From positions 1 to 64,000 of the forward strand of contig JBEWZL010000093.1 of assembly GCA_045837725.1 (NCBI GenBank): a stretch of DNA of 64,000 nucleotides, in the 5' to 3' direction. The notes below the pieces were generated by a model. It had not been told where the DNA came from and did not search any database. It saw only the letters and a list, made by a program, of their open reading frames with translations. Positions 3,346 through 54,600 of this stretch are shown piece by piece. Source of the DNA: Vermamoeba vermiformis. Taxonomy: Eukaryota. Within the stretch, counting starts at the first letter, position 1. Every line of letters starts with the position of its first letter. The position numbers and the translations under genes were made by a program.

Positions 3346-3673
3346 GTTGATGATGTATTCTGAATAATAAGAATAACAAAAAAGGGGCACGTGCCAAGTA
3401 GCCTTTGCATGAAAAAATTTATCAAACTTGGTGTGCCAAGGCTGAACTCAACAATACACCGAAATATAAACTGTAGAACTAATATTTGATCACATTGTAT
3501 TCAGAATATGAATATTGTGCAACAGTGGGAGGGAGATGTCACGTCGTTTCCGGATTTGCGCAACCTATTCTGCAGCTATTCCCAAAACTAAATCAACCAA
3601 AAAATATAAACTATTATAAAATAATTTCTGCCTAATAACTGCACTATTAATAATATCTTTCAATCAAACACGG

Positions 3674-4480
3674 ATGGACAGAATACTAAAAATTATTGCC
3701 AATACACCTACTCCGCGAACAGTATCAACACTACTGCACGATATAAGAGCACTTGGAGTACTCCCTGGCGACACAGTTGTTGTGCACTCGAGTCTCTCTG
3801 CCATTGGATTTGTTGTCGGAGATGAAGTGGCCGTAATTCAAGCTCTGCAACAAGCAGTCACCGAGCAGGGCTCGATAGTCATGCCTGCATATTCATCTGC
3901 CATTAGCGATCCTGCGCTGTGGGAGAACCCTCCTGTGCCTGAAGCATGGTGGGACACTATTCGTAACGAGATGCCGTTGTTCGACCCGAGCTCTACTCCG
4001 CTTTACGGTCTCGGCGTAATACCAGAAGGTTTTGAATTTTTGTTAATGAGAAAAAATATCACTTGGTGCGCGTGGGGAGCACATGCCTCGAAGATCACGC
4101 AACATCATTCCCTGAGCTACTCGTACGGACCTAACACACCCTTGGGCACATTATACAACCACCCTAATACGAAGATTTTACTGCTTGGCGTTGATTTTGC
4201 GAGTTGTAGTGCCTTGCATTTGTCTGAAATTCTATCCGGAGTCGGGGCTGAGCGTCAGTGTGGAGCACCTGGATTGGACGACCAAGGCAAGAAGACCTGG
4301 ATTCAATACACTGACTTGGACTACGGTGGCGATGACTTTGCGCAGATAGGTCTAGATCTAGAAGCACAAACAAGTAGCGTGAGCACGGGTCCGATCGGAT
4401 CAGCAACTTGCAAGCTCGTGGATTTTCGTTCCTGCGTCGATTTTGCGACCGAATGGATCAAAAAGAATGGTAGTAAATAA
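3674..4480 (+). CDS. Aminoglycoside N(3)-acetyltransferase / YokD-like (Antibiotic_NAT family), apparently intronless
   Basis: 268-aa ORF with 'LGVLPGDTVVVHSSLSAIGFVVG', 'GSIVMPAYS', 'DPALWENPPVPEAWWDTIRNEMPLFDP' and 'ILLLGVDFASCSALHLSE', which follow the AAC(3)/YokD consensus. Confidence 0.88.
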   Translation: MDRILKIIANTPTPRTVSTLLHDIRALGVLPGDTVVVHSSLSAIGFVVGDEVAVIQALQQAVTEQGSIVMPAYSSAISDPALWENPPVPEAWWDTIRNEMPLFDPSSTPLYGLGVIPEGFEFLLMRKNITWCAWGAHASKITQHHSLSYSYGPNTPLGTLYNHPNTKILLLGVDFASCSALHLSEILSGVGAERQCGAPGLDDQGKKTWIQYTDLDYGGDDFAQIGLDLEAQTSSVSTGPIGSATCKLVDFRSCVDFATEWIKKNGSK

Positions 4481-10005: not shown

Positions 10006-13000
10006 ATGGCAAGTAAGTTTTGGCAAGTCGCGCGCGGCTAAAGATAAATTTAAAACTGCATTCAAAGGCACTACCACACTAGGCCATAGTTATATAGTTA
10101 TATCATTTATTATTAAGGCCTAATACGGAGTCGCTGATGGAAAAAGAGAAGGTGGAAACAAATCCACGGTCTCCACCGGACCAGCGGCTTGCAGAAGTAA
10201 GTTAATACTACCGAATCGCATCATTTAAATTATTTAGCTCATTATACTGTATTAGAAACTGCTCAATGAGACGGAGGCGACTTTAAATCTGATTTTCGAT
10301 GATCTTCCCGACAAGAACATGGAGTCTATGCTCGTAGATAGCTTGTATCAGGTAATAATGATTCACAGATCAAAGCTCTATTTGAGTGATAGCCTAACTG
10401 CTGCGTGTAGTTTTACGAGACGCGTAAATCCGGAACTAAATTTCTGAACTGGGCTGTTCGAAGCGAAGTCGTTAACCGAGGTATGATGTCGATGATATAT
10501 ATCGATGCTCTAAGTTTGCCATTATATATATTAATATTGCCTTGATTCTAGAATTGCCCGAGGAACTGTTCAAACTGGCCACACCGACTACGCAAGTGAT
10601 GATGCATTTCATGTTTGACGAGCGCGGCGTTAATTTCATGAAGGTGCGTATCTCAATTTTCACCACCTATATTTAAAATCTCCTTATTCAAGTACAATAA
10701 TTAAAAATTGTCCGACCTAACGGAGTTATTATTTGGCACGAGGAAAATTAAATTTCAAATTTTGCAGGAGGTCCTAGTCCCTGTTATAAATAAAATACGT
10801 CGTATTGTCGACCGAGAACGAGAAAAAGAGCGAGATCTGCTAACGGCTTCGAGCTCATCTCGATCCTCAACTTCAACTTGGGACACGAGCGATTATTCGA
10901 TATCGGAGCGAGAAAGAGATGGCGATAGTATCTCGCAGTCTATGGAAGCCTTGGATATAATGAGCGAGATGAGCACTACTCCCGTAAGTTTTGATTAAAA
11001 AAAGATCTGCCGACAAAAAAACCCAAATTAATTATTTCCTTATTAGGAATCTTCTGTCAAAGAGGCTGAAGCAGTGCCTAACCCTGTCTTATTACTGGCA
11101 TGCGATGAGATCATTGATAACTTGCAAGAGAATTTGGCCTCGTTCCCATTGTACGTAACGTACCATTTCCATTTAAGGAAATTTCGCACCAGTGTCACGT
11201 GCTCTAACTCATTCATTTTTGCAGATTCATGCGCGAAGGATTGCTCACGTTGCACGAAGAGTGCATGAAGAAGCATCCCAAAGTCGACAACATTGTGCCC
11301 GTGGTGTTGTTTTTGCGCTTTATTTGTCCGACTTTGGTGCAACCGACCGTGTTTGGCCTATTAGAAGGTAAATATAACTTAATGACACTATATTTAGCCT
11401 GTTATCCACATACTTTAACTTATTTCAAATTATTTCAAATTGTGTTCGGATCAAGCTCCAGAGAGAAATTTTAGGCAAAACTTACATTTATATTAATTAT
11501 AATTGATTTTTGACGTATTAAATCTTCTTGCCAATTTTGGAAAGTTTTCAATAGTTCTTTCAGAATCGAGTACTAACGTCTTGTGTGCGGTGTGCGCAGA
11601 AACGTTGAGCCCAGCTGCGTTCCAAACGACGCTGTTAGTGACGCGCATCGTGCAACACATCGCGCTGTCGTGCTCATCAGAACTGAAGAAGAAGTTGGAC
11701 CCGAAACTGCCCAACAGACTCGACGACAAGGACGTCAAGAAGTACATTGAGAACAACACCGCTAAAGTCAAAGATTTTGCCGACAAAGTCATCGTAAGTA
11801 ACAAAGATATTACGGCTTATAGTCCTCGAAAATCATTAATTTAATTATTTCCTTTTTAGGACGGAGATAATATTGCGTTTTGTCGCAAGATGATTAACGC
11901 TTCAGTGAAACGAGTGGATCCGCCAAAAGAATTGCTCGACGAGACCTTGCAACGAGTGCACGATGTACTAGTGCACATTGACAAGGTGAAGCGACAAAAC
12001 AGGGCTGAGAGGAATAACAACGGCAAGTACTTGTCGGATCTGATTCCGCTCAACGTAGAAATTGCGGAATTATTGTCGCCGAGAGGCTCTAATGATCCCA
12101 CTGAGGTAATTACACTAAATAATTATGACCCAAAGCGCCTTTAAAATGAAATTTTTATCAAGTTTATTTTTGTACTTCCGCAACTTATAACTGCAGACGT
12201 TACTTTCCTTTATATGGTAATACTGGGTTCAGGAGTGAGTGCTAATTGTCCTATTTTTGTGCAGAAAAAGCCGTCAGCCTCAGATCGCGATGTGGTCGGT
12301 TGGATCCCGCCTTGGGTCCGTCGTCGTACACTACAAGACATTGACGGCGTGCAATACACATTTGGCGATGTGATGGCCGAAAATGGCAAGACCTGTCTCG
12401 TGCTCCTGCGTCACTTTGGGTGGTACGTTCACTGAAAACACGTGTCAAAAGTGTCATCCTCACGATACCTTTGCATTTTCAGAGTGACGTGTCGGAGATC
12501 AGCGGACAGGCTGACTCAGATCCACAGCTATTTTCAAAGGCTGTAAGTACCGTTAGATTTCCTAGTAAGGCAAAAAAAAACTGATCTGCTCGATTTTCAT
12601 GAACAGCGAAAATTCATTGTTATTTCGAGTGGAACGATACTAATTTGGTTATTTTCCTCTTACAGTGGTGTGCATCTTGTAGCGATTGGTTCAGGAACTG
12701 CAAAGATGGCGATGGATTTCAAACAACGACAAAATTTTGCTGGTCAGATCTACGTCGATCCGTCGAGGACAATCTACGACGATTTGAACTGCAAACGCGG
12801 CTGGAAAGCTGTACGTAGAATTAATGGACGGACTATATCATTTTTTTTACTGATTCGTTTTTTAGGCACTGTTCAATATGAAAGTTCTCAAGTCCGTTAA
12901 AACAGCGTTCAAAGAGGGCTACAGACAAGGCAAGACGCAAGGTGACATGACGTAAGTACTCAACAATGGCACGTGCTTGCCAAATAAGGAAATATGCAAG

Positions 13001-13533
13001 ACATGCCTTCTCGAGATCTCATTCTTACAGTTGGTTTTGACAGTCAAAACGGCGGTCTGTTCGTGATTGAAGGCGGAGATCGCGTGCTGTACGAACACGT
13101 GGAGGCATTTGCAGGCGATCATCCAGACCTCAAACACGTGTTGACGGCGTGTGGGGCCAGCGAGGACATGTTGAGCGAGTATCAGCGTACGTATTCTAAA
13201 TAAGGATACTCATTCAATAAGCGAACATTGAACATAACCTCGTTCATGAAATCACGTTCATTTTCCAAATTTAGTAAAGAACAATCGTGCTGGAATTAAA
13301 TCCCATCGCACCTTCATTATGAACTGCTAATTTTTTCACGTGGAGATGTGGACAGATATTAATGTTATTTTTGCCTTGTAGTGAACATCGTGACGCCAAA
13401 ACAAGTGAAGCGTGAAGCGAAGAAGAAAATGAAAGATCAAAAACGACTCGAGAAAGAGGCGCACAAACAGCGCATGAAAGAGTACAAAGAGCGCAAGAAC
13501 GCGTTGAAGAAACAGCTCGACATTAAGAACTAG
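10006..13533 (+). CDS. RasGAP-like domain fused to an AhpC/TSA-2 (SelU/SelL/PRXL2-like) thioredoxin-fold domain with in-frame UGA (probable selenocysteine), then a Lys/Glu-rich tail
   Basis: RasGAP-like exons: 'FLNWAVRSEV..ELPEELFKLATPTTQVMMHF...GVNFMKEVLVPVINKI' and 'VLFLRFICPTLVQPTVFGL'. A phase-0 intron 12106-12264 joins these to 'KKPS...TCLVLLRHFG'. Intron 12423-12482 yields TG|A, giving RHFG-U-VTCRR. Later exons encode 'GVHLVAIGSG', 'IYVDPSRTIYDDL', 'GDMTQNGGLFVI' and 'AGDHPD'. Last exon is 13382-13533. Confidence 0.8.
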
Positions 13534-13794
13534 ACACTATTAGTATTTATTTATTATCAATATCGATATTATTATACTTGTATTATATAGAGGTGAAGCA
13601 CAAGTGGAGGTTTCGCAAGATGGAAAAGAAGAATTGAAATTTTTGCAAAGTCTCGCATCCATCGCTACGCACACAAATGAGACTTTGCAAGAATTCTATT
13701 CGTGATCTTACCGAAGATTTTGCTACGAACAGCGTTGGATTGCCTTTTATGGCAACTCGAGCGGTCTGATCTTTTCAACCTTTGAGGTCGGATC

Positions 13795-13862
13795 TGCTCG
13801 AGCGATAATTTCGTGAATGACCGAGACTGAATTAACTCACCCCTCATCGGGATCATTGAGCT
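13795..13862 (+). promoter_or_regulatory. Candidate eukaryotic SECIS element in the 3' UTR of the UGA-containing gene
   Basis: ATGA at 13817-13820 and GA at 13851-13852 form the AUGA/GA core. Flanking GTGA/TCAT, CGA/TCG and TGA/TCA can pair, with apical unpaired AA (13830-31 or 13834-35). It lies about 280 nt after the stop codon and before AATAAA at 13955-13960. Helix II is imperfect by eye. Confidence 0.5.
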
Positions 13863-14019
13863 TCAGTACTCGCGACAACATCACCCAAATTTGGAATTAT
13901 CTCTGACGCTCTTGTCGCGGATTTTTGTAAGAAAAACATCCGTGCGAGATCTCCAATAAAAGCTTCTTACGATAAGTGATTCTTATTAATATTGAAAATG
14001 CATTTTACAGTTGACATCG

Positions 14020-14235
14020 GGGAGAGCAAAAAGAGGAACCGAAGAGGAAAGAAGGAGCCAAAAGGAAAAACACCGCGAAAAAAAAGAGAAAAAAAAAGGG
14101 AAAGAGAAAAAAGAACAAAAGAAGAAGAAGACGAAGTGGAAAAAAAAGGGAGAGAAGAAGAGAGACGAAAGAGAGGGGAGGGAGAGTAAGGAGCGAAAAG
14201 TTATAAGAAAAGTCTTTTTGAGGGAATTGGGGGGT
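14020..14235. repeat. Low-complexity purine (A/G)-rich tract
   Basis: Almost only A and G on the + strand with long A runs. The Lys/Glu/Arg-rich ORFs in two frames are compositional. It may be low-quality sequence. Confidence 0.6.
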
Positions 14236-14354
14236 TGCAAGTTGCTTGTTAGGAACATTCTAACATGACTGCGTAATAATAAAAGAAAGACGGTACTGCG
14301 AGTTTGTTTTCAAATGTACATGTTATTTTAGTTTAATTAATTACAACAAACGAT

Positions 14355-17122
<2,768 letters not shown>

Positions 17123-17288: not shown

Positions 17289-19720
17289 TTAATAGATTAC
17301 TAATAATAAAGTACAACAGATCAGGGCTTGCAATTGTCCGACAGTGATTTGGATCGAGTCGCTCGTAGCTTTTTTACCAGGAGATGCTGCTGGAGTGCCA
17401 CCATTGTTCGGCGTAGTACCATCAGACCCCTGTAACGCTTGTTGCAAAGCATCAAAGTCCACACCTGGATCCGATCCGTCCGAAGCTTGACCTTTGTACG
17501 GCGAATCATCAGCCAATCTATAATCATCACCATTATAGTCCTTAAACTTCACGACACTAACGCCAGTGCTATTATCTCCCGGCCAGAAATTTCCACTTGG
17601 AAATCCAGGCTCGTACATCGCCTTATCGCCATCGAGGGTCGTAATAATTACATTGTGCGTAAATTCGTAACTCGGATTCGGAATTTCCAAAGCAAAGTTA
17701 TTCAATAAGTCAATAGCAGTAGTTAGTGTATTAGACTGGACTTGTGTCGGAAGATAATCAGGCTCTGACCAACGGATCCCCGCACCTCCTCCAGCATCGC
17801 CCTTATTAAGCCACAAAATATTGTCGCGCATAACTAACCCATTTTGTGCGGCATAAGAGCCGTGCAAAAAAGCAGGGCCAGTGCCTTTCGGATAAATAAT
17901 AGTGTTGTGTATGAACTGAATGTCTTCGCCTCCCAGAGCCAACGCCAATATTTGACCGCGAGTAGGACCGTATATATTATCAGCCCAGTGCAGTGCATTG
18001 ATGTCATAGAACAAATTGTTTGCAATCAAATACCGAGCTGAAACTTTGGTACTGCGATAACCTAAAACAATTTTAATGAGTATTTTTACTAATAAATTTG
18101 AACAATTGTCTGCTTACCGACATCGTCTTGACCAGTGATTTGAATGCCACCACTACCGTGTCTGAATATATTATGGCGAATAGTAACGTCGGAAATTTCG
18201 GCTTCGTTCGTCAACGGAAGATTTTCTGGAGCTCGGGGAGTAATAATAATTGCTTGACCGCCTGATAACGTCGACCAATAGCTCTCGATGATATTTCCTT
18301 CGAAAAGAACTCTTCTGCCGCGCTTCAACTCAATTGGTCCTCTAACATCACGAGATCCTGCTCCATCGTAGGTATCAGATCCAGGTCGGTGCAGTTCATC
18401 GTAGGAAAAGATATTCCGTCGAATCTCAAAGTCGTCACGTGGGAGAGTAGGATCATCGTCATTAGCAAACAATAATATTCCGCTGCCACGAATAAAATTG
18501 TCGGTAACTTTGAACGGGCCTGCGCGACCAATGATGTTGATGGCTTGAGACGTCGTAGCGCCAGCTCGAAAATCAATAAGTGACCCAACCACAGCCATGT
18601 AGTTGCCACTCATTGACAATGTTGACCTAAGTTCGGCGGTATTGACTTTAGGGTTCCTAAGTATGCATCGATCAAAAGTGATCCGCTCATTTTCTCCTTC
18701 GGCAAAAACTAAACCGCTAATATAAAATATGTGCTTAGCAGGCGTAGTAAATTCGATGCCTAAGAAGTACAAGCCGACTTGACCGGTCATATAAACGGCT
18801 GTTCCGCCCAATCCGCCAAAATTAGGTTTTCGAGCCAACCAGATTCCACCATTGACGTCATAGCAATAGTAAAGTCCATTCGATTCATAAGGGATGTAGA
18901 AATAATAGTCGCCGATATTGCACTGACCTGTTGGAATGGTCTCTCCCTTGTTTTGGGTGATTTCAGTTAGGGATCCGCCGTTACAAATAACGTAGTATTT
19001 GTTATTCGTATCATAATAAACCTTGCCTTCTTCGCAAGTTGATCCAGGTGCGCCAAAGGTAGCGGGAAGTACCGTATTGTAGATCTTGGCCATGTTGGAC
19101 GCGTAAATATCTTGATCTGCTGGATCCATTCGAGTTTTGGGAGGAGGCAACGAACTAACGTCTGATGATCGAATTAAGATAGTACCGCTACGATTTTGGG
19201 GCGTAATAAATTCTACGGCAGCGCAAATAGCACCAGAAGGAATGACGATCTCGTGGTTCAAGTTTGGATCTTCTTGCAATACCAACGAGTACTTCGCTTC
19301 GAGATCGGTGCAGAAATCATTGACCTGAAAGGTCTTGCCAGTTATGGTAGGAACTTCTACTTCAAACATTTTCGGCAAAGTTGGCGTTGACGACGAAGAT
19401 TCGGATGTGGTCAGCTGTTGTTGGTCGGAACAAGCCGATTGATCGAGACATATTCTAAAATACGTTACTGAGTTCGGAGCCATGCCAGTGATAACAAGAG
19501 CACCCGTAGTTTTGCCGCCGGGCACTGATTTGGGTAATGATTTGAATCCGTAACTTGTTGTGGGTCCATATTCGACGTAATATGTGCCAGGTGTGTCTGT
19601 TGTCCAACCAATTCTAGCAGAGGAATGGGAGATGCCGTTGACTAACACATCTGAGATTACAAGAGCAGCGGAAAGATTGGCCAAACATAACAACAGTCCA
19701 AATAGTAAATTTCTCTCCAT
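17289..19720 (-). CDS. Secreted or surface protein: N-terminal Fn3-like domain, right-handed parallel beta-helix, C-terminal hydrophobic (GPI-like) tail
   Basis: Two long ORFs are joined by one 56-nt intron (18062-18117). Signal peptide MERNLLFGLLLCLANLSAA; 'SARIGWTTD..GTYYVEYGPTTSYG'; beta-helix turns 'IRRNIF', 'IELKRGRRVLFEGNIIE', 'DVTIRHNIFRH', 'IANNLF', 'FIHNTI'; 'DYRLADDSPYKGQASDGSDPGVD'; ends 'LICCTLLLVIY'. Confidence 0.8.
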
Positions 19721-20111
19721 ATTTTATGAATTAATCTTGCTCGCTGTAATTTAAATTATTTTAATACAGATCTAATTTTGGATAATTTTGGAAGGGTTCG
19801 ATGAATCGGGCACGTGGTGCATAACAAATTTAGATTACAACGAAGTTAGTACGTTTTGTAATGCGTTCTTATTATTGAATTTAAATCTAAAATTCGAAAT
19901 CAAGTTACTTTGGCTTGGATGGACCACAAAAACTGCTCTTGTGCTGGATCTACTTTTGATGGATGAGTGACTTCGATCACTGGTGATCAATGTAATACCT
20001 ATGAAGATTTGGTTTGGTGGTGTCCAGAACTGCCTGGTCAAAAAATAATGAGAAAACCCATTCCGCTCAGTTAACTATTTTGCATTATCTTTTGCACAAA
20101 TACGACAACAA

Positions 20112-29177: not shown

Positions 29178-29413
29178 GCAGTGTGGCTGTACAATAGAAA
29201 AACGAATTTTATTTTACCAAAGTACGGTAACATCACCACAGGTTATTTTGCGAAAGTGCAGCAGTCCTATTAATTGCATGACGTTATATCTGTGGTATTA
29301 TTATAGGTAGTAATGTAAACGACGCAGAGTTGTGATCAGATCCTTTTTAAAAAACTCTGACTACCAAAATTTTAGAAAATTATAGAGTTGACACAATTTG
29401 CTAAGGTCACAAT

Positions 29414-30184
29414 ATGGGAAGCAAAGAAGCAGCGTTAAAAATATTTTTAATATTTTCTGTAATTTATTCGTGTTCTTGTGCCGGATGGTGCCCAGATGTT
29501 CCTCCAAACACTCTGTCAGACTTAGAAATGGATGCAGGTTGTGTTTTATTATTTAATGGTGTTAACCTGGATGGTTGGAAGTATTTACGACCGTTAGATT
29601 CAAACTGGACGGTACGAGACGGAGTTTTGACCACATCTCACTTGCCACCGAACAGAAAACCAGGAGCTTTAACAGACATAGCTACGACAACTAACTTTAC
29701 TGAAGGTATATTTAAATTCGATTGGCGATTGGATCCTGCAGGTAATAGTGGTGTAAAATTCTTTTGCGATCTGGATGCGTTGTACCACGAAACCCCGAAT
29801 CGCAAGCGTAGCGCTGTGTGCCCTGAATATCAAGTACTCGATGACAATGGCTTCTTTCCTGACGCCTGGTACCCTAATCGAACAGCTGGAGCGTTGTACG
29901 AGTTGATCCCGCCGTTCAAACACAAACCACTGAATCCGATCAGCGATTGGAACTGCGGTGAAATTCATACTGATGGCGTATACACGGAATTTTGGATGAA
30001 TGGAGAGTTAGTGGTCACTTTTGATCGTTATTCTGACCACTTCAGAAAATTGGTCGCGAGATCCAAGTACAACCCGAAGACTTTTGGCTTAACCGCTTTA
30101 TCTCCACTCGTATTGCAGGATCATGGCCAGGCTGCTTATTTTAGATCTGTTAAATATTGTCCTGTAACCCAGAAAAGACGCTGA
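29414..30184 (+). CDS. Secreted DUF1080 (3-keto-disaccharide hydrolase-like) protein, intronless
   Basis: 256-aa ORF with signal peptide and 'LLFNGVNLDGW', 'WTVRDGVL', 'GNSGVKF', 'EYQVLD', 'AGALYEL', 'WN.GEI', 'LQDHG...YFRSVK'. Confidence 0.88.
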   Translation: MGSKEAALKIFLIFSVIYSCSCAGWCPDVPPNTLSDLEMDAGCVLLFNGVNLDGWKYLRPLDSNWTVRDGVLTTSHLPPNRKPGALTDIATTTNFTEGIFKFDWRLDPAGNSGVKFFCDLDALYHETPNRKRSAVCPEYQVLDDNGFFPDAWYPNRTAGALYELIPPFKHKPLNPISDWNCGEIHTDGVYTEFWMNGELVVTFDRYSDHFRKLVARSKYNPKTFGLTALSPLVLQDHGQAAYFRSVKYCPVTQKRR

Positions 30185-48615: not shown

Positions 48616-51600
48616 CTAATTCAACACAGGAGCTAATTTCGGGTGCTTCTTCGCTGCGGTCATGAGTTTATCAAACAGCTTGTCCAGCGTTGCAATACGA
48701 TTGTCAATCGCGTTCTCAAGCTCCGCAACTGCGAGTTGCTTCATGCCTGGAGAGCCATGACGATTGCCAGCTTCTTCAATCTTCTTCTCGATGGCCTCGT
48801 TCTGCGTGTCGAGAATTTGTTGGTATTTGACGAAGTGTTGGCGGATCTGTGCGGTGTACTTCGTCACTTCCTCCGCGACTTCCTTGATTTTCTTTTCTTC
48901 TTCGAATTTAAGATCGAGACACAAAGCCTTCATCACAGGCACAAAGTTGAAGTCTTTCTGTGCGATCTAACATCAAAAGGTAAATATTAGACAATCGCAC
49001 ACCGAGATCGATCAACGCACCTTATCAGCTACGTATTGTTCTGGTCCCGTGTATTCAGTACGATCTTTTCTTCGCAGGTACATGTTGAAGTTCAAGTAAT
49101 GCCATAAATTGTGATCGTGGAAGATGTGTTGTTCAAAGTCATAGCCTTGTCGCTCAAACACGTCGCGTTGAATGCCACACATGAAGCAACGGTTTTGGTT
49201 GTCTTCATCAAGCATTTGATTCTCCGCGCGTAACTCTTGGAACGTGTCAATGATAATACCAAAGATCAACTTCAGCAGGATGACAATGATCAAAATGAAG
49301 AACGACAGATCGTAGACGAGACGCCACGAGTACTGCGGACTAGCAAATGAATGGGGCGATAATAGACCACCAAGACCTCCGCCAGTACGAAGTCCATAAT
49401 TGAACACGGTCACGAGGCACATGGCCAGTGATTGGCAGATTAGCTGGTCGTCTTGAATGAAATCTTCACGGAAGAACAAGAAGCCCATGATGGCGTAGAT
49501 GTACAGTACCACGGCAGAGAGTAACAACTAATCCAGGTCAGTGGAGTACTTCAATTGGGGCAGGACTTACCGTGAGAATGATCGACTTGATGTTGACTGT
49601 CACGGATCTGATGACTTCTTTGAGTAGAGCATTGCGTACCACGAGATCAAGTAAGTGGAATGCGAAGAAATAAGGATTGCCTGCGGGCAACAAGAAGACG
49701 CCTAACACGGCACACAGCACGTAGCAGAAGTAAAACGGCACTCGTCCCGCGCTGAGGAAGTGAGCGGCAGTGAAAATCACGTTCTTTGTGTTCTTTGCGT
49801 CCAGTTCCTCCCACGAGGCCTGGTGAATGTTAATACGGGACTTAACAACAAATGAGTTCTACTTACTCCTCGCTCTCGCCATCGCTTTCTCTGCTCCAAT
49901 TGTCCATCGCTCATTACATTGACGTAAAAGATTAACACGGCGCCGGCTATTTGAAGCAAGCCAAGTAATAGCAAGCCAAAGAATGCCAAGTAAGACGTAT
50001 TAAATGCATCCGAGAAGGTGATCGATAAGTTGATGATGATCGAGAGCAACAGCGATGCGTTCAGAATATTTTGTTCTTCTTTTGCAACGCGCGAGAAAAG
50101 ACTGTTTTGTGCGAGCTTTTCTCGGTGGGTCATTTCTTCGAGCAAATCTTCTGACCGTTCGTAGAAATCCTGAATCTTAGTCTTCTGTGATTCGCGATTG
50201 ACTTGACGAATGAGATCCTCTTTTGACTTGAGCGGCAAGTTGTGGCATACAGGAAGAACTCTGAAATAGACTCGCTCGATGTTGTTGTTGCGTACAATTT
50301 CAACGCTTGCTGAACTTTTCACAAAGAAATTATCGTGGGGAATGGATTGCACCAGCTTTTCCAACTACGAGCGAAACGTTAGAATAGGTAAACGGCGTTA
50401 ACTAGCAAACTTACTTTGCTGTCCGAGTCGTAGGACTCTAACGTCTTGAACAAGAAGTAGAGCAAAAACCCTTCGTTGATGATTGTTTCAGTATGCTCGT
50501 CAACCTCGGTGTCTTCAGTGAGATTAGACTCCACGAATCCGCTGACGAGTTTGAAGTCTTTGAGTAGCTCATCAAAGTTCAGCGAGTTCAGTATGTGCCG
50601 AGGGATGGCAGGGCTTGTATTGCCTTCCAGTAAACTCAACAGAGTGATGAGCATCGACTCTTTCAGCTTGTTAATCTTCGCGTGCTCTACATTCAACGTC
50701 TTCAATCTCCAAATGTAGTTGATGGACTCGCAGAGCTTTGTGCGACTCAGCGTGATTTGATTCTCCGCTGAAGGTCCTTGGCAGTATTCAGTCAATGTCG
50801 CGAAGAGCTGAATGGCGATGTCGATGTTGTTCTTATCGATGCCGCCTTCCAATGACTCCAAGCAGGCTGCTGTCTCGCTGATCAAATCGACGCTCTTTGC
50901 CGAGTACGGTTGCAAGCGCAACAAACTCTGCAGCTCAAGATTGTGACCTTCGCAGAGCAGCTGCAAGAATCTGAGAATTTGCTTGATGAAACCGCTATCT
51001 TTCATTTGCTTCTCTTCAGTCTGCTGTTCAAGTGCGGCTTCAGCGATGGACTTTCCAGTGAGTGAAAAACCAAGGCTAAAAGCGGAAACGAGCGCATTCT
51101 TTCGTTCTCGTTTCTGAGAATGAATTTTGCGCTCTTCAAGGTCTTCCAGCAGCTTTCGCATCCTGGTTCGAATTTCTACGAACAAGTCGCAATTAGGATT
51201 GCTTTTGAACGTGATGAGTATCTCGGTTTGCACATGTTTGTTGCCACCATGCAGGAGCGCTATGCCGAACGAAAGAACTTCGTGAACTATGTTGCTATTG
51301 GGTACGTTGATCAACCGGAAGATTAATTGCGTCGCTCCGAGATCGTTGAGTTGGCTCTGATATTTCTCTAGAGCCTCATTTGATGCGTCGATTAGGCCTT
51401 CTAACATAGTGCGTAGTGCTCTCACGGTCATGAGAATGCTCGAGTTGAAGTCTCCGCTCTTAATAACATCTTCTGAGCACACGACTTCAATCAACTTGCG
51501 CAAGAACGCAGTGTCATTGGAGTCGAGATTATGCTTAAACAATTCGACTAAACGAGCTGATTCTTTTTCGTTGGTGAGAGTTGAAGAGCTGAGCAACAGT

Positions 51601-54600
51601 TAGTTATGACTTCTTGAAGGAATGGTTGGCTTACCAAAAGGCATGGAAATTCTTTAAACTAGCGTGCAAGTACTGTTCCTTGCTGAGTAATTTCTTTGCC
51701 GAGAAGCTACTGAGAAAAGCTGCCACTCGATCCTCTTGCTTTTCGTTTTCACGAGGAGTTGCTTGGATCTCGTGCGCAAGAGCTTCAATTGCTTTGACAT
51801 CGCCTTTAGCAGTCAAATTCTTGCTTTTCATTGCCTCGAAGCAAGTCTTCAAAGTGAAGGCCTCTTTGCTCGCGAACTCTCCTTGCAGCGAAGATGCTAA
51901 CTCCACCAGATGATGCGAGATATTGTGGCAGATATCCTGGCGAATGGCATCCAGTTTTGACTTCGTGGAGTAGAACGAGTCAAAATAAACGCGAAGGAAA
52001 GGCAACAGCTTGGTAAAAATGAACGGTCGAAGTTGCTTCTCCAGGCGCCTACAAAAGCATTAGTGTAAGCTATTCGTTTCGAATTATTTAATAATCGGTA
52101 CCTTTCAAGCAAAGCTTTGATCTTTTCTTGCTTTTCTTTCTCTTTTTGTTCCCGTTTGCGTTGCTTTTCCTCGTGTTTTTGTTGCTTCAGCAACTCTTTT
52201 TCTTCTTTTTTCTTTTCTTTGGCCAACCGCTTCTCTTCTTTCTGGTGCTCCTTTTCTTCTTGTTTTCGTTTTTTGGCTTCATCTTTATCTTTTTTAAGCT
52301 TTTCTTTCTCCGCTTTAGCGATTGGTTTCTTTACTTTCTTTTCCGGCTTTTCCTCATCGTCGCTTTCGGATGCCGAGCCAGACTTTGACTTGGAACTAGA
52401 TTTGGACGAGGCACTCTTAGCGTCTTCGCTATCACTTTCGGACTTCGATTCATTGTCGGATTCCTTTTCTGAGTCACTTTGGTCACTTTCTGACTTACTT
52501 TCTGATTCGCTCTCTGATTCGCTCGAGCTACTCTCCGATTCACTTTCAGATTCGCTTTCGCTTTCGCTGTCACTGTAACTGGCCGACTCATCCGAGGAAA
52601 ATTCCTCTTCCGAGCTGCTGACGTCATAAACATCTTCTGCTAGTTCGGCATCTTTGTTGGCACCTCGTGGTCCGTATTCTTTCACTCGCTCGATAAACAA
52701 ACGCAGAGACTCCTCAGCACTTTGAAGGATTCTCCATAACTGGCTAGAATTGTCGATGTGCTTGATCTTTCGTTCTGTTTCTAAGAATCCTTCAAGAAAC
52801 AGGGACAGAAACGCGCCGCGAATAGGCGCCCAATTGCTCATGTCTGAGATTTGTTCCACAATCGTGTTGACGTCAAAAATGCTCTGGCACTTAATTTCAG
52901 CTTCGTAGATCTTTCCTTGACAAATTATTGCGAAGAGCTCGATAAGCTTGACGCAGTACTGCATTTCTGAGTTTGTTTCTCGATAAATACGCTCATGCAT
53001 CATTTTAGATCTGCAGTTATTAGAAATGTTTAACACAATTTAAAGTGTGTTTACCTTTTGCTAACGAGTTCAGGATTGTCGTAAATTATAAGCACCGATT
53101 TTTGTTTTTCTGCAAGCAAGTTTGCGAGCAGTATTTGGTTGCGACGCAATGGAATATTGTTGATAGTCAGAATAGTCTGATAAAGATTAGAAAACAAGCG
53201 TTAATTAGTAGCAACTGCTGTAACTCACATGCAACACTTCAACATAGATCGGTAGTTTGACCTTAGCCATTTGATTCAACACTTTGCGGACGTGTGCTTC
53301 CGTTATTTGCAAGCAAATATCGCGATTATTGTGAATTATTGCGATGAGCAGCTCGGAGACTTTGATTGTCAAATCAATATCGTCGATATTCTCGAGCAGG
53401 AAATCAATGTGATTGAACATCCTTTCTTGATTTTCCGCATTGTTGCGACAAAACTAAGATAACAATTAGTACCAGTTGCGGTGACTTAAAAGTTCAGCTT
53501 ACTCTTTTCAAGAATTCAAGGCATGAATTGAGCACTTCCGTTCGATCAGAAATCTTTTTCACCTTCATGATCTTAATGACAGCGTCGTAGACCTTCAAGT
53601 GATTGAAGATTTTTTGATTCTCGAGGTGTGACCGATACACATCACCAGCAAGACTCGTCATTTGTTTGAGAATGTCTTTGAGGTCGTAGAGTTGCCGCTT
53701 GAACTCCGTAGCCATTTGCTTTCGAATGAAGCTCATGTATTGCCGTACTTGGGTGTACGTTGCCACAAACTTCTCGTCGGCAAGTATTTGAATCTTGGAC
53801 TGCGCCTTCAGCAACTCTTTTTCTTGTCTACTTTTTGATTAGTACCAAACACTGATTTAGAACGGAACTTACGTAAAATTTCTGATAAGTAAGTTGGCTG
53901 CAGCACAAGACAAACGCGTGTTCGAGTTCGATACTAAACTCATCAACAACGCTAAGTACTCTGGTGTCATTAAGTGGTATTCTTTCATCACCGCCTTGAC
54001 CTGGGGCGCAGTACTTTCATCGAACTGCGTGGAGTCTTCGTAGTACTTCTTCGTCTTGATATCAATGTCCGATATCTTTGACTTCGCTGTTTCCAATAAA
54101 TAGGTCAAGCGTCGGTCGATGCGGTAATCGTAAAAGTAATCCAACATGGTGCAAACGGTTTCTTTTGATTCTTCGTCATTATTAGGATCACTGAGGATTG
54201 ATAGAAGGAACGGCAGCAGTTTGGCTACGTCGTCGTGTGTAAATAAGCCGATACTGAAGACTTGCTGGCATAAAAGCAAGACCGTAGACAATAGCTTGTC
54301 TTGCCCACTGTGCAAGTACTCAAATACAAACGTCTTCAGCTTTTCGAGGTCGAATTGCATGAAAGCTAAGCATGCTTAGTAAAAAGCGACAGCTAAGGTC
54401 GAAACTTACATGATATAGAGCTTTGCGACAAAATAGTATCGCCGCCCGTTGACCTGATGTTTTGTTGCAAGTTGGACCAGAGCTAAAATATATTAGCCTT
54501 CGAAATTTCAAATATTGTTTTTAATGCTTACTCGAGTATAGTTAATGAAGCTGACTTGTTTAACGGTGCCTTGTTTGATGCTAACTTCAATTGCCGCGAA

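Follow-up and report, generated by a model that had tools for sequence, protein, structure and literature searches.

We analyzed a 64,000-nucleotide (nt) stretch of DNA from Vermamoeba vermiformis (assembly GCA_045837725.1, contig JBEWZL010000093.1, positions 1 to 64,000 of the forward strand), referred to below as the window. On its forward strand lies a gene for a redox protein of the AhpC/TSA_2 group whose mRNA carries an in-frame UGA, probably decoded as selenocysteine (Sec), and the codon is divided by an intron in the DNA. Six exons with GT..AG borders encode the redox part. The first (12265-12422) ends with ...LVLLRHFG, in which RHFG is spelled CGT CAC TTT GGG at 12409-12420, followed by the letters TG at 12421-12422. 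A 60-nt phase 2 intron (12423-12482, GTACGT...TTTTCAG) cuts the TGA between TG and A. The next exon (12483-12542) begins A GTG ACG TGT CGG, where the A is the third base of TGA, and continues as VTCRRSADRLTQIHSYFQR. The second intron (12543-12665, GTAAGT...TTACAG) precedes exon 12666-12810 (GVHLVAIGSG...IYVDP...GWKA), which encodes the AhpC/TSA_2 core. It is followed by exon 12866-12951 (ALFNMKVLKSVKTAFKEGYRQGKTQGDMT), exon 13044-13186 (QNGGLFVIEGG...GDHPD...SEYQ), where the AhpC/TSA_2 domain ends, and the last coding exon (13382-13533), which encodes a lysine/glutamate-rich tail and closes with the stop codon TAG at 13531-13533. The spliced frame reads ...LVLLRHFG-TGA-VTCRRSADRLTQIHSYFQRLGVHLVAIGSG...IYVDP...QNGGLFVIEGG...GDHPD... 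up to the tail, and the same lysine/glutamate-rich C-terminal tail is present in two relatives (P0003 and P0152).

An earlier note on this DNA, made from the letters alone, had placed the end of the first exon, both introns, and the start of the next exon at exactly these positions, and its claim that the frame beyond the second intron reaches GVHLVAIGSG, IYVDP, QNGG, and GDHP was borne out. It had further claimed that an acceptor 2 nt downstream would give TGT in the wrong frame, and this acceptor does lead into a non-homologous frame (CDVSEISGQ...).

No run recorded as RNA was found to contain the stretch. The exon junctions were compared with assembled contigs from two runs guessed to be RNA (X1, from a close relative or related strain, and X3) and with raw reads of two RNA runs that carry the species label of the best-matching runs (X9 and X11), all aligned reads being 90-95% alike to the window. 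One 671-nt X1 contig joins 12421/12422 to 12482/12483, skipping 60 nt, and the joint takes GT..AG borders after a shift of the one ambiguous G. The 61 letters at contig positions 95-155 are identical to 12482-12542, which leaves no room for an insertion at the joint; the mRNA therefore reads GGG UGA GUG. The contig lists no difference at 12421-12483, and its portion over the first exon (12331-12421) shows 0 differences. Splicing of 12423-12482 creates an in-frame UGA in the mRNA, as had been predicted, through the joint 12422|12483. The same contig also joins 12542|12666, 12810|12866, 12951|13044, and 13186|13382, and it contains both joints of exon 12483-12542. An X3 contig supports three later junctions of the gene, including both joints of exon 12666-12810 and the joints on either side of exon 12866-12951, and 12951|13044 is also found in the raw reads of X9 and X11. 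These raw reads include none over 12079-12466 and hence none across 12422|12483 or 12105|12265. GTACGT is the donor at four sites of the gene model, three of which (12423, 12811, and 13187) are borne out by joints in the X1 contig. A separate, partly spliced JGI contig, from a relative that matches the window at 96% identity over the exon-3 query, encodes a protein (P0002) that reads RHFG-W-VTCRR across the junction, with the third intron retained.

The spliced frame belongs to the AhpC/TSA_2 family, in agreement with the family proposed earlier. PF13911 matches exon 12667-12810 (E value of 2.3e-9; 38 bits against a cut-off of 27), exon 13045-13185 matches PF13911 positions 93-112 (E value of 0.027), and relatives P0001-P0003 carry the same domain. 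A search with P0002 against 1.84 billion representative proteins returned 235 matches at E values up to 0.001, and the column counts given here refer to the best 149 matches other than the query itself. The motif LRHFG-C-x-x-C-R is nearly invariant among these homologues. The UGA column is covered by 126/149 sequences, comprising 117 with Cys, 7 with Trp, and 2 with gaps, and the second Cys column of the motif has Cys in 118/126. The UGA thus takes the place of the first Cys in the CxxC active site, as had been claimed before the homologues were aligned. Thirteen of the 149 fall short of the column, and 10 are open reading frames (ORFs) starting 1-4 residues past it. Tryptophan or truncation at an otherwise invariant Cys is expected from the automated annotation of an in-frame TGA. 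The Trp in P0002 most likely reflects a TGA that a gene caller translated as Trp. Public protein sets show the gene only as fragments or with Trp at the site.

The closest solved structure to a Cys-containing homologue (P0005) is prostamide/prostaglandin F synthase (9us9; E value of 7.4e-10), whose RRFGCVVCR aligns to the motif. The sole NCBIfam match of P0002, P0003, P0005, and a bacterial Sec homologue (P0269) is NF040769, the SelL-related redox protein, with E values from 7.5e-11 to 4e-25. The scores (42, 57.2, 79.5, and 88.5 bits, respectively) all lie below the cut-off of 120 bits. Judged from these relatives' proteins, the gene appears to be related to NF040769 and not a member of it by the cut-off. 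When metagenomes were scanned with P0002, the three matches were all due to chance, among them one (L001) with RHFGWVTC in an unrelated frame.

The source DNA could be consulted in one case of Trp at the UGA column. The homologue P0045 has Trp where the corresponding DNA (L004), from a Chloroflexi metagenome-assembled genome (MAG), has TGA. The cluster of P0045 contains 179-residue forms with Trp and 125-residue truncated forms. The TGA in L004 stands at the same column (LLRHFG-U-IFCRK) of an otherwise open 179-codon frame, with a 7-base pair (bp) hairpin 21 nt downstream of it, and the MAG has selB (302 bits against a cut-off of 242). The TGA, together with selB and selD in this MAG, indicates that members of the family naturally carry Sec at exactly this column, consistent with the earlier statement that SelU/SelL/PRXL2-type proteins carry Sec in this motif. 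Published work on SelU, on SelL, and on Prx-like UxxC selenoproteins (PMC2375036, PMC3316567, PMC2398784) agrees with Sec at the column. The selD gene of the MAG (G001:C1:134206-135126) has one in-frame TGA, and SelD there is itself a selenoprotein.

Downstream of the stop codon, the 3′ untranslated region (3′UTR; 13534-13972, forward strand) spans 439 nt and contains AATAAA at 13955-13960. X1 contigs extend to 13596, and an unspliced X3 contig covers 13619-13972, ending 12 nt past AATAAA. No gene-like frame was found in 13540-14400. Within the 3′UTR, a hairpin at 13804-13901 (forward strand) is a plausible selenocysteine insertion sequence (SECIS) of form 2, lying downstream of both the UGA (by 871 nt in the mRNA) and the TAG (by 283 nt). 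In the predicted fold, AUGA (13817-13820) faces GA (13874-13875), helix II (13822-13831 with 13862-13872) comprises 10 bp with A13868 bulged, and unpaired UUAA (13832-13835) leads into a mini-helix (13836-13842 with 13849-13860). The AUGA...GA core, the 10-bp helix II, the location in the 3′UTR, and the unpaired AA 13-14 nt past the core followed by a mini-helix all resemble type II SECIS elements. One study describes all Dictyostelium SECIS elements as type II with a U-U mismatch by the core and reports long mini-stems in Dictyostelium and Ostreococcus alike (PMC2375036). The fold of 13805-13892 (88 nt) has an energy of -20 kcal/mol (z = -3.07), and 1/200 shuffled sequences folded as well. 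The strict rules called for an AUGA...GA core, a helix II no shorter than 8 bp in which a single irregularity was tolerated, an energy of -10 kcal/mol or better, and an unpaired AA among the first unpaired 5′ letters at 9-14 nt from the core. Of the 604 AUGA cores that the two strands of the 64-kb window contain, the candidate alone passed these rules. Relaxed rules gave 6 matches among 2395 cores, and the candidate ranked first.

The pattern of differences in related sequences is also consistent with a SECIS. The X3 contig has 13 differences, 12 of which are listed, and none of those listed falls in 13799-13906; nine and a 1-nt deletion lie in 13669-13798, and three lie in 13907-13940. X9 cannot be aligned just past the stop codon but is at least 90% alike over 13791-13921. 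Three of the five X9 differences listed in the candidate fit the fold, as 13853 and 13854 are unpaired and the A-to-G change at 13859 keeps a U-G pair. This conservation fits the SECIS candidate. Other structures were considered and set aside. Pairing AUGA at 13817 with GGAU at 13850-13853 would give a perfect KGAW, but helix II would have only 4 + 2 bp at -3.2 kcal/mol; because X9 also changes U13853, this pairing was dropped in favor of GA at 13874-13875. An 8-bp stem (13871-13878 with 13912-13919) offers AUCA instead of AUGA, and a hairpin at 13638-13695 has no core in register. The latter belongs to a nearly perfect hairpin upstream of the candidate (13631-13701), which has 17-18 bp (13638-13654 with 13679-13695) and 5 outer pairs.

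Upstream of the redox part, eight RasGAP-like exons with GT..AG borders occupy 10256-12105 on the forward strand and probably belong to the same gene. Exons 1-4 lie at 10256-10351, 10411-10480, 10552-10643, and 10768-10983, and exons 5-8 lie at 11047-11150, 11225-11367, 11600-11793, and 11860-12105. The fourteen GT..AG exons form one frame whose sole internal stop is the split TGA. The junction 11793|11860 is present in an X1 contig, and loose ends of X1 and X3 contigs at 11598 match the end of exon 11225-11367. One exon, within ORF 11208-11471, contains the RasGAP stretch FLRFICPTLVQP (FLRFICP), which aligns to SynGAP (3bxj; E value of 5.7e-4). The two parts would be linked across a putative 159-nt intron (12106-12264, forward strand; GTAATT...CTAAT...TTTTTGTGCAG), in which the donor is followed by CTAAT, resembling a branch site, and by a pyrimidine tract with CAG after it; removal of this intron keeps the frame. 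If there were two separate genes instead, an in-frame ATG at 12214, inside the putative intron, would be an alternative start.

The architectures of homologues provide a precedent for such a fusion. Among 24 long homologues selected from 150 listed, 15/24 pair AhpC/TSA_2 with RapGAP and 1/24 with RhoGAP, and some carry PH, kinase, or DEP/RGS domains. The named multidomain homologues are from Amoebozoa (Soliformovum, Cavostelium, and Protostelium). These fusions of Cys-containing homologues with RapGAP, RhoGAP, PH, kinase, or DEP/RGS match the domain fusion proposed here, in which the redox domain probably forms the C-terminal end of a RasGAP-like protein. The closest full-length relatives (P0008-P0080) are mostly PH-AhpC/TSA_2-RapGAP proteins, the others having RhoGAP, protein kinase, or DEP and RGS domains. 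The literature matches listed for this architecture, in which the redox domain is fused to a GTPase-activating protein (GAP), include none containing "AhpC".

We consider it about 75% probable that this is a selenoprotein gene of the AhpC/TSA_2 group (PRXL2/SelU, SelL-related) with a Sec codon split by an intron, a SECIS-like hairpin, and a probable RasGAP fusion. The earlier note had reached the view that the gene encodes a selenoprotein, and this view is supported by the spliced UGA, the Cys column, the bacterial Sec homologue, selection on the downstream exons (see below), and the SECIS-like hairpin.

Several observations weigh against this interpretation. The evidence for the junction 12422|12483 is one assembled contig from a run whose RNA nature is guessed, with no raw read, and a donor 3 nt upstream (12419|12483, GG|GTGGTA) could bypass the UGA codon and keep the frame as RHFG-VTC. 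Rfam reports no SECIS family in the whole window at the gathering score and, at E values up to 10, none on 13100-15600, 13534-13980, or 13800-13895 (96 nt); a CRISPR-DR25 hit on 13100-15600 at E values up to 10 is a chance match. The 3′ core of the candidate is CGAC, whereas the consensus given by the SECISearch3 authors is UGAN/KGAW, and a mismatch adjoining the core, which lowers the grade in their scheme (PMC3753652), is present here as a C-C mismatch. Helix I is poorly defined, also by comparison with type II elements, and the X9 differences at 13813 and 13814 break its predicted pairs. The SECIS rules were fixed after the candidate had been seen. For the upstream part, ORF 11208-11471 scores 23.2 bits against the RasGAP family PF00616 (E value of 6.9e-5), below the cut-off of 28.3, and the other upstream exons, scanned singly, gave no Pfam RasGAP match. 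The RasGAP fusion is one that we infer, since the junction 12105|12265 is covered by no read or contig and a database search with exon 12265-12420 for longer proteins found none. The window contains no tRNA gene. The codon tallies given next are themselves partial.

The alternative that best survives is that the UGA is a plain stop, which we judge improbable. A RasGAP-like or short protein would then end with ...LRHFG, and the downstream exons would be an untranslated remnant, possibly with nonsense-mediated decay of the mRNA. Termination would accord with the lack of an Rfam SECIS match and with the use of TGA as the stop codon of 4/13 long frames of the window. However, the protein would lose its fold and be left with no redox centre, and the exons beyond the UGA encode the rest of a Pfam-significant domain. 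Changes in these exons are mostly synonymous: 7/7 listed changed codons in X1, 4/4 in X3, and 10/12 in X9, or 21/23 when pooled with shared sites counted per run, the listed differences being the best-supported ones with 40 others outside the counts. A protein from another lineage (P0004), 63% identical, keeps LLCRRSASELTQ...GVELVAIGSG right after the column. The depth of the X1 contigs is 11.8 over the downstream exons and 5.3 over the upstream exons, and so is not lower past the UGA, which is weak evidence. In these comparisons, the exons past the UGA show purifying selection, the lack of which the earlier note had named as evidence against a selenoprotein.

It is also quite unlikely that the UGA is read through without Sec machinery, by near-cognate decoding as Trp, Cys, or Arg, or that UGA is a sense codon here. 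The database proteins with Trp at the column could be taken at face value, and the SECIS is a candidate only, not a validated element. Against this, Trp stood for TGA in the sole checkable case (P0045/L004), and Trp or Arg at the attacking position, where 117/126 homologues have Cys, would be inactive. The 13 long open frames of the window contain 50 TGG and 69 Cys codons and zero TGA, apart from the 4 that end in it, and treating TGA as open yields 58 frames of at least 150 codons, compared with 41 for TAG and 77 for TAA. By this measure of codon usage, TGA is not a general sense codon here.

We regard it as very unlikely that the functional product comes from a codon-free splice form, such as 12419|12483 with RHFG-VTC, with the UGA form as a by-product. 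The upstream donor does keep the frame, but the motif's attacking residue would be deleted, and the joint is absent both from the X1 contig, the sole contig crossing the junction, and from P0002. The donor used instead, GTACGT, recurs at the model sites confirmed in X1. Finally, a TGA produced by recent pseudogenization or assembly error, conceivable in that a single base decides between TGA and TGT, TGC, or TGG, is extremely improbable given that the X1 contig from the related strain lists no difference at the codon, that a TGN codon, read as Trp, stands at the same place in the P0002 lineage, and that the downstream exons show the signs of purifying selection described above.

Removal of intron 12423-12482 joins TG and A into the UGA of LRHFG-U-V-T-C-R. 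Under the preferred reading as a selenoprotein, a Sec-specific elongation factor with Sec-tRNA, recruited via SBP2 on the 3′UTR hairpin, would then insert Sec. The product would be a thioredoxin-fold domain whose UxxC centre may cycle between the selenol/thiol and selenenylsulfide forms, as do CxxC thioredoxin-fold proteins. Tied to small-GTPase signalling, it would likely act as a sensor of redox state or peroxide or as a thiol-disulfide oxidoreductase, and one may speculate that the attached GAP is modulated by the state of the redox centre.

Selenoproteins of the SelU/SelL type are already known from unicellular eukaryotes, and the gene can be set beside several described groups. With SelU/PRXL2 (SelU1-3; PRXL2A, B, and C; prostamide/prostaglandin F synthase), it has in common the thioredoxin-fold AhpC/TSA_2 domain (PF13911) and the G-[C/U]-x-x-C-R motif with Sec first; it differs in its probable RasGAP-like N-terminal part, its lysine/glutamate-rich tail, and its intron-split Sec codon. 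RHF-x-C-x-x-C and IYVDP gave the first impression of a PRXL2C-like protein, a subfamily assignment that we take as presumptive. SelL proper has a UxxU motif, whereas the window gene has UxxC. SelL, NF040769, and the prokaryotic Prx-like UxxC proteins are further linked to it by the Sec at the same column in a bacterial homologue. In contrast to the prokaryotic Prx-like UxxC proteins, the window gene is a eukaryotic gene with introns and would depend on a 3′UTR SECIS. One survey describes Prx-like UxxC selenoproteins as abundant in marine prokaryotes and SelL as a Prx-like protein of prokaryotes and eukaryotes (PMC2398784). Among the closest full-length homologues are the amoebozoan PH-AhpC/TSA_2-RapGAP proteins of Soliformovum irregulare, Cavostelium apophysatum, and Protostelium nocturnum (EukProt transcripts), which are 39-41% identical to P0002 and have the same LRHFGCxxCR motif. 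In these, as proposed for the window gene, a GAP for small GTPases is joined to the redox domain; their redox domain carries Cys and has RapGAP C-terminal to it, whereas the window gene has a probable Sec codon and an N-terminal RasGAP-like part.

Three aspects seem to be new: a Sec codon formed only by splicing, the non-consensus SECIS candidate, and a Sec form of the GAP-fused branch. In open-access text, no paper was found on a selenoprotein whose Sec codon is split by an intron, and cases may sit unremarked in annotations. The earlier note had expected the gene to be missed by ORF finders and by genomic UGA scans. This stands for ORF finders and for scans that rely on a contiguous TGA, and it does not extend to spliced profile aligners. 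Such aligners also cope with intron-split codons. Those used in Selenoprofiles score UGA against Sec (PMC2958745).

Several other features of the window were observed. A purine-rich (GA/AAG) low-complexity tract (13990-14210) lies between the 3′ ends of the redox gene and a convergent bromodomain gene (14355-14603, reverse strand; PF00439). On the forward strand, 3620-4480 holds an intronless 286-codon frame for an aminoglycoside 3-N-acetyltransferase (PF02522; E value of 1.7e-62); it looks like a gene of bacterial type within a eukaryotic contig and is a possible case of horizontal transfer. Further long intronless frames lie at 29405-30184 (forward strand) and 17289-19723 (reverse strand). 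They include a 3-keto-disaccharide hydrolase domain (PF06439; E value of 1.1e-30) and two adjacent frames of 274 and 544 codons with no Pfam match. On the reverse strand, a large IP3-receptor/ryanodine-receptor-like gene (RIH_assoc) at 49012-53039 contains a long insert rich in serine, glutamate, aspartate, and lysine. The best database identities of its receptor-like exon are 43%, and 30% to Papus ankaliazontas; a best identity of only 43% indicates a poorly sampled lineage.

The split codon points to an annotation blind spot, in which a Sec codon without a contiguous genomic TGA escapes ORF- and TGA-based scans, and the gene would extend the range of the SelU/SelL-like group to an unsampled protist lineage. 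If validated, the odd SECIS, with its CGAC and the mismatch by the core, which standard models miss, would help to tune SECIS models for protists. The GAP fusions of the relatives suggest an unstudied redox input to small-GTPase signalling, of which the Sec version would be the most reactive member. A more specific proposal, which we put forward tentatively and with the odds somewhat against it, is that the gene encodes a RasGAP selenoprotein in which a RasGAP-like catalytic part is joined to a UxxC PRXL2/SelL-like domain and the spliced-in UGA acts as a selenium-dependent switch. If so, Sec decoding would yield a GAP with a highly reactive selenol sensor, and its failure would yield a GAP ending with ...LRHFG or a degraded mRNA. 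GAP-fused AhpC/TSA_2 domains form a large group that apparently has yet to be described; the protein would then be its Sec form, and Ras signalling in an amoeboid protist would be linked to peroxide and selenium status.

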